Below the pieces are notes generated by a model. That model searched no databases and was not told where the DNA came from. It saw nothing but the letters and a program-made list of their open reading frames with translations. This document shows positions 385 through 47,050 of a stretch of DNA of 64,000 bases, one piece after another. The stretch is from Carpediemonas membranifera BICM. Taxonomy: Eukaryota > Protista > Fornicata. The stretch's first letter is position 1. The number at the start of each line of letters is the position of its first letter. Location of the stretch: positions 62,001-126,000 of the forward strand of contig JAHDYR010000066.1 of assembly GCA_019828565.1 (NCBI GenBank), in the 5' to 3' direction. The position numbers and the translations under genes were made by a program.

Positions 385-1479
385 TTACGTTGCGCAGTAT
401 AAACACATTGTTCGAACCTCCAGACAGGGCCTGAAAGGAACGATCAAAGTGCCAAACTGACAAACAACATCATCCGTCCGTAGACGAATGTTGGCGGTTA
501 GCCAATTGATGATGCTGGAATGATGTTGGAAGGCGCGGGATCGATGTGCGACTGAACGGAGAGCCACTGAGCTCATCTTCCGTGGCAAGAGAACGCCACA
601 GGATGTCTCTGCAGCACTCTTGTCCCGATGATCAACATTCAGAGCATCAGGAACTGTTGCGCGCCACTGAGCACCACGGCACTGTGGATTTTCGCAGAGC
701 ATCACACGATGTGGGTGAACGTGCTGGTCATCACGCGGACGAACTCGCTTGTAGGGGGCGTGGCAGTGAGGGCAGACGACGGTGGTGCGATCCTCGTTAG
801 CCATGTTAAGATCGACAATGGTATACCCCTTGAGAAGGGGAACTATCTCTCTCGCGAACTTTCGATATGGCGCGCAAGGAATGAACATACCAGCAGGCGT
901 GGTGAATCCCGAGCTCCCGTAGAAGACTTTCAGGCGAATGGGGGTGGCGATGGGATGGTGGCGACGCCAACCGAACTCCCGAGCCAACTGTTGGCCGCAG
1001 AGGGCGAAGTGCTTCTGGCGAAGGATGTGGTTCGCAAAGCGCACTCGGCGGAAAGACTTACGCATTCCAGCCTCGAAAATGTCGTTCGCGTTGTCCAGCA
1101 CAAACCTAATAGAGTTGTTGATACTCACTAGTCTTGTGCTCTTGAACGACGCGGCCGTCATATCAAAGCCGAAACTTGGCGTCTTAGTGTATCCGCACTT
1201 TGGAAGGACGCCGGAGCTGGTGGTGCCATCGGGGTGCCTGATGTAATACCCTCCGATGGACCTCGCGCCCGGGTCGAACCCCATGAGGTGGGCATCAGGA
1301 TCCGGCGCGGGCAGAGCATCGGCATTATTGGTCCCGAGTCGGGGGCGCTCTTTCTCCCGCCCTTTCGCTCGCTTTCGAACAGGCATGCTCGCATCATGTT
1401 GTGGCCGATAGTGGCCGCCTCGCTTAACCGTCACCGCCACACAGACCCCATCGGTGCTCAGGCTGAGCAGACGGCCCAT
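385..1479 (-). pseudogene. Fanzor/TnpB-like RuvC nuclease, C-terminal part (frameshifted)
   Basis: RuvC-I GFDPG, VFYG, relocated Glu in NEDRTTVVCPHC, CENPQC zinc finger and RuvC-III HRDKSA. A missing base near 606 shifts the C-terminus; the restored frame ends at TGA 470-472. Confidence 0.85.
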
Positions 1480-2013
1480 TGACCTGGGGTTGTCCCGGTA
1501 GCGTCTTTTTTGGAGGCGTGCGGGAGTGTGGGATTAATTCCCACGATGACAGAAGTTCTCGTTCAGTAGGCCCATCGTTTCACGATCACGGGCCATGAAG
1601 CCCGGCCGGACGGGGGCCATGGGCACGATCGGCACGAGGCGAGGCTGGCGGAGCGACATCGAGTACTCCCCGTTGAAGTGGCTGATGAGGCCACTCAACT
1701 TCTCCACTCCGTCTGCAATTGCCCAGACGCAAGAGAGAATGCGTGGGGCAGCCTGGGAGACTGGGAGCCCGTCGTTCTCACCCATGTGAGCCGCCCAGAA
1801 CAGCAAGGGGAGACACGCGAGGATCACAGGGTTGACCCTGCCGAGGATGGCGTGAACGCCGGCCAACTCCTGCTGGAAGAAGACGTCCACGAAGAAGACG
1901 CTTTGTGGAAGCCCTGGAGAAGACGATCTCCCTACCGACTTAAGACGTGAGTAGGAGGGAGACAGGGCAGTGTTGCGCAGTATAAACACATTGTTCGACC
2001 CTTCAATAGCACA
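389..2013 (-). mobile_element. Fanzor-carrying non-autonomous element, family A, copy 1
   Basis: Near-identical to 35080-36706. The 5' terminus (minus strand) is TGTGCTATTG at 2013; the 3' end lacks the last 3 nt. TAC flanks both sides (386-388, 2014-2016). Terminal direct repeat at 389-415 and 1972-1998. Confidence 0.9.
1534..1969 (-). pseudogene. Upstream fragment of the same Fanzor gene (5'-deleted)
   Basis: PRLVPIVPMAPVRPGFM matches PKLIPFVPMAPVKPGFM of the family B Fanzor. Same frame as 385-1479 but separated by TAA at 1534-1536. Confidence 0.8.
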
Positions 2014-2068
2014 TACGTTACCTGCTTAACCTGCGCGGACACTACCGCCTGGCAGGCCAAACACACCA

Positions 2069-22517: not shown

Positions 22518-22571
22518 TCCCTCGGGGAGCTTGGAAAATTCGTGAGATCCTTAAACTGCACATCAACAGGT

Positions 22572-22634
22572 TGGGGTCTCGATACAACAAGAGTCCTACT
22601 TTACTGCTTGCACTGTGCACTCTATGATACTTCA
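22572..22634. mobile_element. 63-bp TG...CA mini-element (family C), TSD CAGGT
   Basis: CAGGT at 22567-22571 and 22635-22639; the last 38 bp are identical to 36767-36804. Confidence 0.75.
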
Positions 22635-24147: not shown

Positions 24148-24372
24148 TGTTCTTGCGAGAAAAAATGACTGCGCAGTTTAGTGACCTTCGCAGGCCGTGT
24201 GAGTGATGCCTATGGCATGCTTGATGGCTGATGGCCCGATTCGTGCTTTTTAGGCGACTGCGAGACCTGACAAAAACTGATACAGCGGCGGCGGCGGTGG
24301 GAAAGAAATGATGAAATTTACACGATAAGGCTAGCATGCATATGATACAGTAACAACAGGCCGGCAGCGCCC

Positions 24373-24666: not shown

Positions 24667-25261
24667 GGTTGAACTTGGAATTTGTGGTGCAGTTTAAGAA
24701 TGAATCAGTGTGGTGTTTAGAGGTTTATGCGGAGGATTCATGTAAAGGTGACTTAAGCTGTCGACCCCCCTGGGATGAACTCCAGAGGACTGAACAGGTT
24801 CAGTCTGACGGCCCACCTGTCGTACACCAGAAGGGTAGCGGACATGAGGGCGTCGGCGATTGTTTAGACTCAACAATTTTAATCCTGCGCAGCACACTAC
24901 CTCCACTCACCCACTTCAGCCCTCGTCTGTACCATCGGGCTGTCGTGCTTTCAGTCGTCGGTCTGCACGAAAAGATGCGTCGTCTGTCGTCCATCGTCTG
25001 TGTCGAACGCTGCTGTCTTCTTTCGCGTCTGTGCTCGTCTGTTACGCGCTCATCTGTCGTCCATTGCCGGCGTCTGAAGCTCATGTCGTCGTCGTCATCT
25101 TCGTCTGTTGTGAGAGAGAGACACTAGTGGTGGAAAGCGGTTGTAGCTGGTAGTAAAGACGCTTTGTGTTTTATGATGCTGGTTTCTTGTGTTTTGAGGG
25201 ATGCTGCTAGCTGATGAACCCTGAAAAGAAATGATCGATGCAGGCAGCTCAATAGACTCCA

Positions 25262-27165
25262 ATGCCTTCCAAGATATACACGGTGAAGGCTTCCGTTAAC
25301 AAGGCCATTTGCGAGATTAACGGCGGAGGCGATAACAACGCGCCGCGGCGAGGAAATCTTGAACCCGGCATGCGTTCTTTCACGCAGGCTAAGTACACAT
25401 TCACTTGCCTGCTTGCGTACGTCGCTGCATCTGCGCACGCGTTGACCCCACCTAGGACGGTCAACCTGTTCGACCAGGAGGTCCTCAAGCAGATCGTCAG
25501 CATTGCTCAGCAAAAGGTGTCGAAGGCAAAGGCAGCGGATCGGTGCAGGTGGATTGGCGATCTGGCGATGTGGAGGGACCCTGACATAACCCCATTCGTC
25601 CAGGACTTCGTCACGGCTTATAGCTACCTTGGCTTGTGCAAGCCATTTGACACCTGGTTGGGCGAGTACTCCACAGCCACCCGGGTCTGGCTCTCGCGCG
25701 CGTCACCCGGGTACATGACCCGTCTTCGTGCTGGATTAGAACGGGTGCGTCCGCTCCTCCATGATCAGCCGGGTGTTCGACAGGATTTTCTCGACACCCT
25801 AGGCGAGCTCGACACTGAGGTTGCCGCCATAGCCGCCGATCATGACAGGTATCATCCTCAAATGCATGCATCGCCCGAGGGGCAACGGGTGGGTCGCACT
25901 GGTACCGTGGCCGAGGCCCTTGTCGGCGTGCTGGCGTGCGTCACGCGCATGAGTGCTGCAGTGACCAAGCTGGTCACACTCACTCGTGCCGTGAACCTCG
26001 AGCTCAGTCAGGCCCTGCCAGAGCCGAAGCTCATTCCGTTCGTGCCGATGGCACCGGTCAAGCCTGGGTTCATGACCATCGAGCGCGGAGTAACAGCGCT
26101 CACCCCATCGATGAAGCGGCGCCTGCGTGTGCACGTGAATTGGTCAGCAACCAAGAATTTGACCGACGACCAGGTGGCTGAATACGAGCGTGATCACGGC
26201 GACATCACCAAGCTCCGCAGAGTGCTCTCTGTGAAGACAGACGGGGACTCTGCTGCTGTGACGGTTTGGGTGGGTCGCGAGAAATACCGTGGCGGTCGGG
26301 TGGCTGACCGGCCCACGTACAAAAAGGTAGCAGCAACAAGCGGGCTCGGCTCGGTCAGGACGACGCCGAGGCTAATCCTGCCCCGGACATTCAAGCTCTC
26401 ATGGGCTTCGACCCTGGTGCTCGGTCGCTGGGCGGCTACACGATCCGCCGCCCAGACGGGCAGAGTGTATCTGGCGTACTCGCTAAGTGTGGCTACACTG
26501 CCACCCCCTCTTTCCGCGTGAATATGAGCGCAGCATCGTTCAAAACGACAAGTCTAGAGGCTCTCAAACAGTCGATTAGGTTTGTCCATGAGAACATCGT
26601 TCAGATCATCAACGAGGGGACGAGAAAGTGTTTCCGCCATGCGACTTTTGCCAATCACTGTCTGCGCCAGAAGCACTTCGCCCGGGCTGGACGTAAACTC
26701 CTGGATGATCTCGGCGGGCGCCCCCCGGAGCCCATTCACCTCGAAGTCGCGTATGGGGCTGCACTGTTTGGTTCCGCCGGTACTCCCTCCTGTGCTCCGT
26801 ACCGCCACTTTGCTCGAGCTCTTCCTGGCATCATGCTCCGGCACAACGTCGTCGTGACTGTCACGATGGTCTCGGAATTCCGCACTTCCATCGTGTGCCC
26901 ATACTGCAAAGCACACTTCAGACGTGTGGTGCACACACCCCGCACCATGCTCTGCCAGAATCCCGCGTGCGAGGGAGCTCCATGGCGCGTTGAACGGCTA
27001 CGTCGGCATCCCGAGCAGAGAGACATACTTCTCAATCTCTCTCACCGAGATAAGAGCGCCAGCGAGAACATCCTTTGGTGCACCTACGATGCAACTTCAG
27101 ATCAGATAGAGCAATCTCCTTTTCACTACGACTCCCAGAGAGGTGCTCTTCCTCACTATCATTAA
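25262..27165 (+). CDS. Fanzor (eukaryotic TnpB-like RNA-guided nuclease), about 634 aa with one -1 frameshift near 26321-26325
   Basis: SVKTDG, GFDPG (RuvC-I), VAYG, SEFRTSIVCPYC, CQNPAC and HRDKSASENI (RuvC-III). ORFs 25262-26521 and 26401-27165 join if one A is added to the A5 run. Confidence 0.85.
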
Positions 27166-27312
27166 CTTGCTAAGTTGAGCAAGCACGCGCTGCAGCGGCG
27201 CGTGATATGCTGCGCACGATTGATAGAGTATGATGAACCACACTGCGATCCTGATGCTGCTTGGATCACTGTGTGTCTTTTGGACTCAAGTATTCTTATC
27301 CTGCGCAGCACA
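27166..27312 (+). ncRNA. Candidate Fanzor omega-RNA scaffold
   Basis: Lies between the Fanzor stop and the element end, with three stems: CTTGCT/AGCAAG (27166-27183), CACGCGC/GCGCGTG (27184-27204) and CACAC..GATCC/GGATC..GTGTG (27239-27275). Confidence 0.6.
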
Positions 27313-27535
27313 ATCAGGTGGGGGCTGCTTCGGCGGCCATCTAACCAGGCAACAAGTCACCTCATGCCGCGCGGGGCGCGGTTTTGCTGATGTTTAAGTG
27401 AGCGTGTATAAATTGAGTTTAAGAATGGACGGATGTAACAACGGTATGTGGTTTATGGTTCATTACAACGGTATGTGGTACTCGCCATGCCCCGGGTCAC
27501 TCTACCCATCCTATGTTCCATTTATATTGCCGGGC

Positions 27536-35062: not shown

Positions 35063-36170
35063 GACGTCGCGCAAACTTTTGTGTTGCGCAGTATAAACAC
35101 ATTGTTCGAACCTCCAGACAGGGCCTGAAAGGAACGATCGAAGTGCCAAACTGTACAACGTCATCCGTCCGTAGACGAATGTTGGCGGTTAGCCAATTGA
35201 TGATGCTGGAATGATGTTGGAAGGCGCGGGATCGATGTGCGACTGAACGGAGAGCCACTGAGCTCATCTTCCGTGGCAAGAGAACGCCACAGGATGTCTC
35301 TGCAGCACTCTTGTCCCGATGATCAACATTCAGAGCATCAGGAACTGTTGCGCGCCACTGAGCACCACGGCACTGTGGATTTTCGCAGAGCATCACACGA
35401 TGTGGGTGAACGTGCTGGTCATCACGCGGACGAACTCGCTTGTAGGGGGCGTGGCAGTGAGGGCAGACGACGGTGGTGCGATCCTCGTTAACCATGTTAA
35501 GATCGACAATGGTATACCTCTTGAGAAGGGGTACTATCTCTCTCGCGAACTTTCGATATGGCGCGCAAGGAATGAACATACCAGCAGGCGTGGTGAATCC
35601 CGAGCTCCCGTAGAAGACTTTCAGGCGAATGGGGGTGGCGATGGGAAGGTGGCGACGCCAACCGAACTCCCGAGCCAACTGTTGGCCGCAGAGGGCGAAG
35701 TGCTTCTGGCGAAGGATGTGGTTCGCAAAGCGCACTCGGCGGAAAGACTTACGCATTCCAGCCTCGAAAATGTCGTTCGCGTTGTCCAGCACAAACCTAA
35801 TAGAGTTGTTGATACTCACTAGTCTTGTGCTCTTGAACGACGCGGCCGTCATATCAAAGCCGAAACTTGGCGTCTTAGTGTATCCGCACTTTGGAAGGAC
35901 GCCGGAGCTGGTGGTGCCATCGGGGTGCCTGATGTAATACCCTCCGATGGACCTCGCGCCCGGGTCGAACCCCATGAGGTGGGCATCAGGATCCGGCGCG
36001 GGCAGAGCATCGGCATTATTGGTCCCGAGTCGGGGGCGCTCTTTCTCCCGCCCTTTCGCTCGCTTTCGAACAGGCATGCTCGCATCATGTTGTGGCCGAT
36101 AGTGGCCGCCTCGCTTAACCGTCACCGCCACACAGACCCCATCGGTGCTCAGGCTGAGCAGACGGCCCAT
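34941..36170 (-). pseudogene. Fanzor/TnpB-like RuvC nuclease, C-terminal part (frameshifted; as assembled it reads out of the element)
   Basis: Same motifs as 385-1479 and the same missing base near 35297; the restored stop is at 35161-35163. Confidence 0.85.
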
Positions 36171-36706
36171 TGACCTGGGGTTGTCCCGGTAGCGTCTTTT
36201 TTGGAGGCGTGCGGGAGTGTGGGATTAATTCCCACACGATGACAGAAGTTCTCGTTCAGTAGGCCCATCGTTTCACGATCACGGGCCATGAAGCCCGGCC
36301 GGACGGGGGCCATGGGCACGATCGGCACGAGGCGAGGCTGGCGGAGCGACATCGAGTACTCCCCGTTGAAGTGGCTGATGAGGCCACTCAACTTCTCCAC
36401 TCCGTCTGCAATTGCCCAGACGCAAGAGAGAATGCGTGGGGCAGCCTGGGAGACTGGGAGCCCGTCGTTCTCACCCATGTGAGCCGCCCAGAACAGCAAG
36501 GGGAGACACGCGAGGATCACAGGGTTGACCCTGCCGAGGATGGCGTGAACGCCGGCCAACTCCTGCTGGAAGAAGACGTCCACGAAGAAGACGCTTTGTG
36601 GAAGCCCTGGAGAAGACGATCTCCCTACCGACTTAAGACGTGAGTAGGAGGGATACAGGGCAGTGTTGCGCAGTATAAACACATTGTTCGACCCTTCAAT
36701 AGCACA
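35080..36706 (-). mobile_element. Fanzor-carrying non-autonomous element, family A, copy 2 (TGTG...CACA, TSD TTT)
   Basis: Near-identical to 389-2013; TTT at 35077-35079 and 36707-36709; 29-bp direct repeat 35081-35109 / 36663-36691. Confidence 0.92.
36149..36662 (-). pseudogene. Upstream fragment of the family A Fanzor
   Basis: VSQAAPRILSCV...PRLVPIVPMAPVRPGFM aligns to family B; needs a -1 shift near 36200-36230 to join the RuvC ORF. Confidence 0.8.
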
Positions 36707-36739
36707 TTTTGACCAGTCCAAACCTGCGAAATCGACCTT

Positions 36740-36804
36740 TGAAGTCTGCTATAGACGATTGAGAGTTACTTTACTGCTTGCACTGTGCACTCTATGATAC
36801 TTCA
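36740..36804. mobile_element. 65-bp TG...CA mini-element (family C), TIR TGAAGT/ACTTCA, TSD ACCTT
   Basis: ACCTT at 36735-36739 and 36805-36809; 38 bp identical to 22597-22634. Confidence 0.8.
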
Positions 36805-44168: not shown

Positions 44169-44618
44169 TTTGGTTGATTCAGTCTTTTCTGCGCCAAAGT
44201 TGAAAGTGCAGAATAATGCCCTTGCCAACGTTAAACCCCATCATCTCTTCGCGACACCTGATGCGAACCCAAGCTTCGCTTGGGGTTGCCGCGAGCTGGA
44301 GGGCCATGAAAACAAAGTCTGGAATTTAATTTCAACAAACGTCCATTGGACAGGGTGGCCGCGGTCCTGTACGGGTGGCCCTCCATCTGTGTCACACGGG
44401 GCAATCACGAGTTGTAGCCATTTCGCCGACGTCACTGGCTGCTCCGACACAGAATGATGTGCACTCGAACAAACCTGGACTGGCAGGGCCGCTATATTGC
44501 CTAATGTAGACGTGTAAATTGTGCACTCGGACACGTGTTTCTGAAAGTCCCGTCCAGTGTCTAATTCGGCGTTATTGTGCGCCAAATGATAAAGAGTGCA
44601 GTTTAGCGCAGAGCATCC

Positions 44619-44664
44619 TGTGCTATTGAAGGGCCGAACAATGTGTTATATACTGCGCAACACA
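44619..44664 (+). mobile_element. 46-bp solo terminal unit of family A (TGTG...CACA, TSD TCC)
   Basis: Matches the reverse complement of 36663-36706 with 1 substitution and 1 inserted base; TCC at 44616-44618 and 44665-44667. Confidence 0.9.
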
Positions 44665-46967: not shown

Positions 46968-47050
46968 CTCTTCGAGAAAAAGTGAAACCCGTCGTCCCTA
47001 AACTGCACATCGACTCAACTGTGTCGCGCCTGGCATAAAAGGCTCTTTAC

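Follow-up and report, generated by a model that had tools for sequence, protein, structure and literature searches.

Fanzors are compact eukaryotic RNA-guided nucleases whose role in transposon life cycles is still argued. A DPG motif and a Glu placed six residues before the zinc finger are described as common to all Fanzors and pro-Fanzors (PMC10711439), and the Fanzor fingerprint is presented as covering every Fanzor (PMC10530073). The RNAs of Fanzor1 are described with three stems (PMC10711439), and at the level of the element the 5' TSD is usually expected to form part of the TAM (PMC13565253). Spu-1 is reported to have inverted repeats of 30 nt, with a CA that is constant upstream (PMC10432273). 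The element described here resembles the Fanzor1 OMEGA systems (SpuFz1/Spu-1, PpFz1, GtFz1, SfAV Fanzor1) in its rearranged RuvC, its TDG and CxNPxC motifs and its size of ~630 aa, as well as in a predicted three-stem RNA reaching the right end and in being a non-autonomous multi-copy element with gene-less derivatives. Unlike Spu-1, it lacks TIRs, repeats its right end in direct orientation, and shows duplications that vary and a target motif 12-13 bp from its end.

Several eukaryotic elements share part of this layout. CMe-1A/TE-N2_CMe of Cyanidioschyzon merolae is likewise a TIR-less Fanzor1 element whose 5' part is a complete separate element, but this 5' unit is 635 bp long and its TSD was undeterminable (PMC3627910). 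Neither a right-end repeat nor a target motif is described for CMe-1A in the relevant section of that paper. KolobokP is also a composite-like eukaryotic DNA transposon with terminal direct repeats, TSD-flanked solos and a nuclease cargo; it differs by having at either end a complete repeat of 450-660 bp with TIRs of its own, by RR...YY termini, by its own transposase and His-Me nuclease, and by the lack of a strong target preference (PMC9587614). A solo repeat with TSD (44619-44662) and a nuclease cargo were found here by analogy, the nuclease being a Fanzor and not His-Me. LTR/TRIM elements such as Tf1, with its Sap1 sites, share the TG...CA ends, the solos, the insertion at sites of promoter-bound proteins and the presence of target sites in the repeats of the element itself (PMC7175516). 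Both the 4-6-bp TSD and the solo repeats of the LTR/TRIM type were found in the present family; unlike in LTR elements, the repeats are partial (last 34 bp only) and non-identical, and no primer-binding site was seen. TDD-4/5 make 5-bp TSDs, and integrase transposons of the Ginger/Tdd and IS3/IS481 types are described with 40-300-bp TIRs (PMC2836005); the TG...CA ends are shared with them, TIRs of 40 bp or longer are not. The element is not a canonical LTR element, a Ginger or a KolobokP, as it lacks defining features of each.

The nearest sequence relatives found belong to the clade of P0054 (L003/L004), which displays the Fanzor1 motifs and 28% identity over the RuvC region. In two metagenome contigs (L003:1524-4761, L004:3671-6912) these relatives lie in a 3.2-kb TIR element which encodes an IS4/5-type DDE transposase and a 706-aa Fanzor1 and which is inserted at two different sites. 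A layout shared with the nearest outgroup was rejected, since the outgroup resides in a classical TIR element with such a transposase.

The nuclease of this locus belongs to a known class, and the element that hosts it is of an undescribed kind. The first-pass annotation had not recognised the layout among Fanzor hosts. This holds insofar as no matching description was found, although CMe-1A/TE-N2_CMe and KolobokP are partial precedents. No description of the family or its layout was found in the openly accessible literature, and no literature linking Carpediemonas with Fanzor was found. The layout is not described in the titles and abstracts listed for Fanzor, LTR and target site duplication, and Carpediemonas is absent from the two supplementary files of PMC10530073 and from the searchable files among the nine of PMC10432273. 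Among literature-described Fanzor hosts, nothing matched the combination of integrase-style ends, no TIRs, repeated right end, solos and promoter-motif targeting. A fragment of the sister family described below (KAG9392881.1) appears without comment as a Fanzor HMM match in Table S2 of PMC10711439.

Boundaries and layout of the family A element

The window, i.e. the whole stretch of 64,000 nucleotides that was analysed, contains one family A element between the IFT43 and the phosphatidylinositol synthase genes, one on each side (Table 1). An element bounded by TGTG and CACA within an ATCAG duplication, with a direct recurrence of its last 34 bp and without transposase, had been claimed previously. 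The bounds and both copies of the duplication were seen, the two repeats are identical at 29 of 34 positions (at most 22 in 200 dinucleotide shuffles), and no transposase gene was detected inside the element. The duplication is weak evidence when taken alone, as a duplicated 5-mer combined with 4-bp inverted ends occurred in 2 of 452 5-mer pairs of the scanned flanks. The first-pass annotation had made the sharing of both boundaries by other genomic copies a condition of its reading. The left boundary is common to a second copy, since a contig of run X3 switches to another flank exactly at 24709; a second locus for the right boundary of family A was not found among the run-contig loose ends listed. 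The right boundary is therefore defined by the duplication, the 34-bp repeat and family B.

Table 1. Positions of the elements, genes and predicted features in the window
Feature	Positions	Strand	Remarks
Family B copy 1, broken Fanzor	391..2013	-	duplication ACGTA; last 3 bp of the end missing; motif 2027-2036
Target-site motif GTGCAGTTTA	24687..24696	+	7 bp before left duplication
Left target-site duplication ATCAG	24704..24708	+	flanks TGTG
Family A Fanzor element, TGTG...CACA	24709-27312	+	5-bp duplication ATCAG
Left unit TGTG...CACA, 188 bp	24709..24896	+	complete mini-element with both ends; motif-like copies at +2 and +21
Inner copy of right end, 34-bp direct repeat	24863..24896	+	29/34
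Pyrimidine-rich tract 3' of left unit	24897..24926	+	minus strand 23/30 purines; also in family B
Fanzor gene, 5' part: helical N-terminal region, TDG motif	25265..26325	+	ends at 1-nt deletion
Fanzor gene, 3' part	26326..27165	+	RuvC-I DPG, RuvC-II Gly, shifted Glu, CxxC/CxNPxC zinc finger, RuvC-III RD
Predicted omega-RNA scaffold	27166..27312	+	two short hairpins and a long stem closing at the element end
Right end, outer repeat copy	27279..27312	+	3' strand of long stem; motif on minus strand
Right target-site duplication ATCAG	27313..27317	+	flanks CACA
Predicted guide region, flank read-through	27318..27332	+	by analogy with other Fanzor1 elements (PMC10711439)
Family B copy 2, broken Fanzor	35082..36706	-	duplication CAAAA; motif 36720-36729
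Family B solo left unit, 44 bp, TGTG...AACA	44619..44662	+	duplication CATCC; motif 44596-44605

No real terminal inverted repeats were found in families A and B, the best end-to-end match being 10 bp long and offset. In the left unit, an outer stretch of 154 bp in A and ~9 bp in B has no counterpart at the right end, so the layout is one-sided and not LTR-like. Of the mini-LTR-like layout proposed earlier, the unusual arrangement of repeats was borne out by a sister family and a solo unit, and the likeness to an LTR was not. The idea that the left unit is a degenerate full copy of the right end was also considered and rejected: in family A the outer part matches the right end at 40 of 154 positions, which is the chance level. 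The repeats are fixed in sequence in both families, the left type differing from the right type in a constant order. Within family A, 5 of the 34 positions distinguish the two repeats, and each of the two types was seen again in a further copy (P0044, P0049). The left unit of family A was found in P0044 as well.

Some variation was observed around these features. About 30 extra bp precede the left repeat in other family A copies (P0039, P0044 and runs X1-X3, at 24857-25002), and one family A variant has a family-B-like segment of the right end in place of the repeat. The sequence AGTTTAAGAATG occurs on either side of the element (24691-24702 and 27417-27428). The C-terminus of P0049 resembles the translation of 27320-27425, which makes the right flank a candidate small repeat in its own right.

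Sister family B and solo units

Two further Fanzor copies in the window define family B. They are 99% identical to each other, and their protein is ~50% identical to that of family A. Both start with TGTG and end with CA, and both repeat the right end just inside the left end, where the repeat closes a 43-bp left unit. With the family A element and a solo left unit of family B, the window holds four insertions, each with its own 5-bp duplication. The solo carries left-type bases, and no tandem multimers were seen in the window. The left boundary of family B was recovered at three more loci in the run contigs. A second probable solo was detected on one contig; its flanks share at least 4 of 5 bases, the right flank being a consensus of two records. 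Sister family B shows that the layout is a rule. The insertion of family B copy 2 is located ~20 bp before the ATG of a probable host ORF. An 11-bp sequence, GTTAAGCAGGT, is present in both flanks of family B copy 1 (370-381 and 2020-2030, minus strand), outside the 5-bp duplication.

The Fanzor gene and its copies

The ORFs 25256-26521 and 26308-27165 were found to be one gene, carrying the motifs that had been named for a pair of ORFs of ~634 aa. The gene is broken by a 1-nt deletion after 26325. An extra G at this position was identified in contigs of three of the four runs, X1 (3), X2 (3) and X6 (1), and the database copies run through it without a break of the frame. Read through 26325 and starting from the ATG at 25265, the frame-restored protein counts ~633 aa; the upstream in-frame ATG of P0013 is followed by a stop in the window copy. 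A programmed -1 frameshift or an intron at 26325 was rejected because other copies have the extra base. The closest proteins are 88-95% identical in the C-terminal part and carry the name Carpediemonas membranifera, in line with the metamonad origin assigned at first.

A profile search of 1.8 billion representatives gave 31 matches. Of 19 among these, 18 are pieces of three related subfamilies and P0054 is the outsider. The closest proteins form clusters of 22, 5 and 1 members. Full-length open copies are P0013 and P0009, the former (642 aa) being an intact copy that is also named Carpediemonas membranifera. Internal deletions and chimeras are common: a form lacking 25046-26818 was present in all four runs compared as well as in P0044, and the chimera P0002 has the N-terminus of one subfamily followed by a C-terminus from a second one. 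All three Fanzor genes of the 64-kb window are broken, as are, or partial, most of the database copies listed. Among the coding differences listed between the window copy and other copies, 23 of 32 alter the amino acid, so that there is no sign of recent purifying selection on the window copy. The sequencing runs, none of which is recorded as RNA, were compared as assembled contigs. Their depth on the element is far above that on the flanks; summed contig depth is unfit for estimating copy number or expression and was left unused.

Further observations concern individual copies. A third Fanzor subfamily of the same organism (P0040, P0050, P0053 and the N-terminus of P0002) has kept the catalytic Glu. 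The family A copy P0001 is labelled 'cytosine deaminase' in NCBI/UniRef, an apparent misannotation. Run X6, labelled organism B, contains pieces of the element at 95-99% identity without the flanking genes, reflecting either cross-contamination or a second host.

Identity of the protein

In P0013, D392 belongs to the DPG motif, which is also present in the window ORF, and G507 occupies the RuvC-II site. E547 follows 152 aa after DPG, six residues before the CxxC zinc finger, whose cysteines (C554/C557 and C573, the second pair being CxNPxC) are followed by D605 of RuvC-III. E547 and G507 are near-invariant in alignment A3. The three acidic residues, G507 and the cysteines of the zinc finger have counterparts in a metagenomic Fanzor1 clade (P0054 and its relatives), which aligns at an hhalign probability of 97.8 and links to the solved Fanzor1s. 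The best three solved matches of the A3 profile, in which the outgroup dominates, were all Fanzor1s, and TDG and CxNPxC are common to the family and SpuFz1/PpFz1.

In the Atlas, P0013 obtained a feature score of 0.98 and TM values of 0.59-0.64 to clusters of 600-820 aa, mostly giant-virus proteins and mostly with TNB/DUF8286 domains. Pfam gave only sub-threshold TNB matches for the family (E 0.016-0.33), the family-only profile retrieved no relevant PDB sequence match, and metagenome and viral contigs searched with the family alignment yielded no relatives. No longer fusion protein was found, which is weak evidence. The fold prediction proposed as a check gave a divided answer: a first AlphaFold model (pLDDT 38) had no Foldseek match at E<=0.001, whereas a second one of low confidence (pLDDT 44), built with the Fanzor1 clade in the alignment, retrieved SpuFz first (E 5e-4), followed by Cas12f, Fanzor2 and TnpB. 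By VIA, this low-confidence model gave Z 10.4 and rmsd 6.1 over 192 aligned residues.

The identification of the protein as a Fanzor is secure: the DPG, G507, E547, the zinc finger and D605 are all in place and a RuvC fold was matched by both the Atlas and Foldseek. The first-pass annotation had read the same motifs as a signature of Fanzor1, which has to be corrected, as they are shared by all Fanzors and pro-Fanzors. The TDG and zinc-finger motifs and the size of the protein nevertheless make it likely, at the level of sequence, that it is a Fanzor1.

Target motif and insertion preference

The most informative feature of the family, absent from the first-pass annotation, is a target motif at a fixed distance. 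GCAG(G/T)TT(A/T) precedes the left end in all four window insertions and is mirrored on the right in none. The gap between motif and duplication is 7 bp in A and 8 bp in B, which places the motif 12-13 bp from the end of the element. As the consensus GYGCAGKWTW was derived from only these four sites, it was tested on four outside junctions with readable flanks (1 A, 3 B), judged by eye. The A junction was an exact match with a gap of 7. Among the B junctions, one was exact (with A at position seven) and one matched at 8 of 10 positions, both with a gap of 8, and one was a miss. Two exact matches out of four correspond to p about 2e-6 for a consensus widened to A/T at position seven, a widening prompted by the ends of the element. 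On the minus strand, each of the two repeats carries the exact motif, in family A as well as in family B.

On the reverse strand, the motif before the family A element is located ~20 nt upstream of the IFT43 start codon. It was found at most 80 nt upstream of 7 of 30 gene starts, which are first-ATG guesses; excluding the two insertion-adjacent genes, 5 of 28 were counted against 4.8% expected (p 0.01). Two other intergenic sequences were observed. A 45-bp repeat, 96% identical between 22590-22634 and 36762-36804, has each of its copies ~30 bp from a GYGCAGKWTW-type motif. The sequence TAAACTGC(A/G)C precedes several host genes by 30-60 nt, in one orientation or the other (22552-22561, 24171-24180, 46999-47008), and is a candidate promoter element of the lineage.

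The last five flank bases were different at all seven readable junctions. As the duplications vary between sites, the guide is not adjoined by the constant TAM on which Fanzor homing usually depends. Under the homing model the 5' duplication should be part of such a TAM, and a family in which it varies therefore offers a direct test of how Fanzors find their targets. The TAM may be relaxed or displaced, which would be useful for editing. A pairing of the RNA end with the target motif was rejected, being by eye not family-specific.

Predicted omega-RNA

The hairpin-rich tail of 147 nt noticed earlier in family A is predicted to fold at z -3.2. In family B an equal three-stem fold is predicted from a different sequence (z -2.8). 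No Rfam family matched the tail. The frameshifted window copy produces no full protein and could still supply RNA.

Proposed mechanism and alternative explanations

Taken together, the family is probably a transposase-less DNA transposon that carries a Fanzor and a predicted omega-RNA and is moved in trans by an integrase which places it near the motif, intact copies being predicted to cut the vacated sites. An integrase-type DDE enzyme acting in trans is suggested by the TG...CA ends, by the 5-bp duplication and by the absence of a transposase gene (PMC2836005). Such a retroviral-type enzyme would insert the element at a fixed distance from GYGCAGKWTW, and the oriented, fixed-distance insertion suggests that the motif is bound either by the enzyme itself or by a promoter factor of the host, at the target and possibly also in the ends of the element; Tf1 and Sap1 offer a precedent (PMC7175516). 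The left unit would be the deleted remnant of a host transposon which has taken up the Fanzor as cargo beyond its right end, with a second right end closing the cargo. Solos would arise if either right end is usable or if the repeats recombine. RNA read through the right end would combine the scaffold with a guide derived from the flank, and, going by other Fanzor1s, cleavage of vacated sites by intact copies would lead to a repair that restores the element. The five variable bases beside the guide may then reflect a very relaxed TAM, a TAM displaced to the motif, or another role of the Fanzor. The absence of real TIRs, unusual for DDE DNA transposons, counts against this explanation, as do the lack of a constant TAM position, the three broken Fanzor genes of the window and the one outside junction at which the motif is missing. 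No transposase, integrase or RT was found among the 50 of 79 long window ORFs that were scanned.

Movement through RNA would turn the family into an LTR-derived, TRIM-like non-autonomous retroelement, placed by a promoter-tethered retrotransposon integrase and carrying the Fanzor as a passenger. This is an unlikely alternative. It would account for the TG...CA ends, the 5-bp duplications (Tf1 also makes a 5-bp TSD), the lack of TIRs, the solo units and the frequency of chimeric and deleted copies. A minus-strand purine tract just before the inner TG in both families (23-24 of 30, reached by ~1% of windows) fits as well. However, the outer part of the left unit is missing at the right end, and 5 positions distinguish the family A repeats, each type being found again in a further copy; as reverse transcription would equalise the repeats, this argues against LTR-style recopying. 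Neither was a primer site of the TGG type, the start by which primer-binding sites are recognised, seen after the left unit; no tRNA genes were found in the window. Targeting of promoter motifs is known for Tf1 (PMC7175516), and a 2026 review reports no evidence for a retroelement carrying a Fanzor (PMC13565253). If the family did move through RNA, it would be the first.

It is rather improbable that only the left unit transposes and that the Fanzor cassette moves as a circle which enters and leaves solos by recombination at the 34-bp repeat, an exchange promoted by Fanzor cutting. Solos do share the duplication and the spacing to the motif with full copies, and KolobokP, which would be the model, has solos, multimers and a homing nuclease (PMC9587614). 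Exchange of this kind is hard to reconcile with left and right repeats that are fixed, different and constant in order in both families, with the left-type bases of the window solo, and with the lack of tandem multimers in the window.

The Fanzor ribonucleoprotein could also select the insertion site, as Cas12k does in CAST elements. A eukaryotic CAST-like system, in which, beyond homing into empty sites, it helps an integrase-type enzyme to place TG...CA elements in one orientation at a family-specific distance from a promoter motif, is very improbable. It would account for insertions that are oriented and keep a fixed distance, for their TG...CA ends and 5-bp duplications, for a spacing that differs between the two Fanzor families (7 vs 8 bp), and for the want of a constant TAM that homing could use. 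On the other hand, the catalytic residues are intact, unlike those of Cas12k, the target motifs match the end of their own family no better than that of the other (by eye), and the spacing may simply follow the end of the element, tethering by a promoter factor being simpler.

Finally, a Fanzor that is now an inert passenger of a family spreading only via its ends has very little probability, for the three broken window genes, the mostly broken or partial database copies listed, the 25046-26818 deletion derivative in all four runs compared and the neutral look of the variants are set against the full-length open copies P0013 and P0009, catalytic motifs kept across families ~45-50% identical and a predicted RNA fold kept across two families.

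The likely host lacks NHEJ, ORC and Cdc6, and its replication has been proposed to start from breaks (PMC8516963). It can be speculated that a multi-copy programmable nuclease is a possible source of breaks in such a host. On one contig of run X1, with a loose end before 24863, more than 255 nt of unrelated sequence lie upstream of a left-type repeat; this contig is a candidate for an autonomous partner or for another family.
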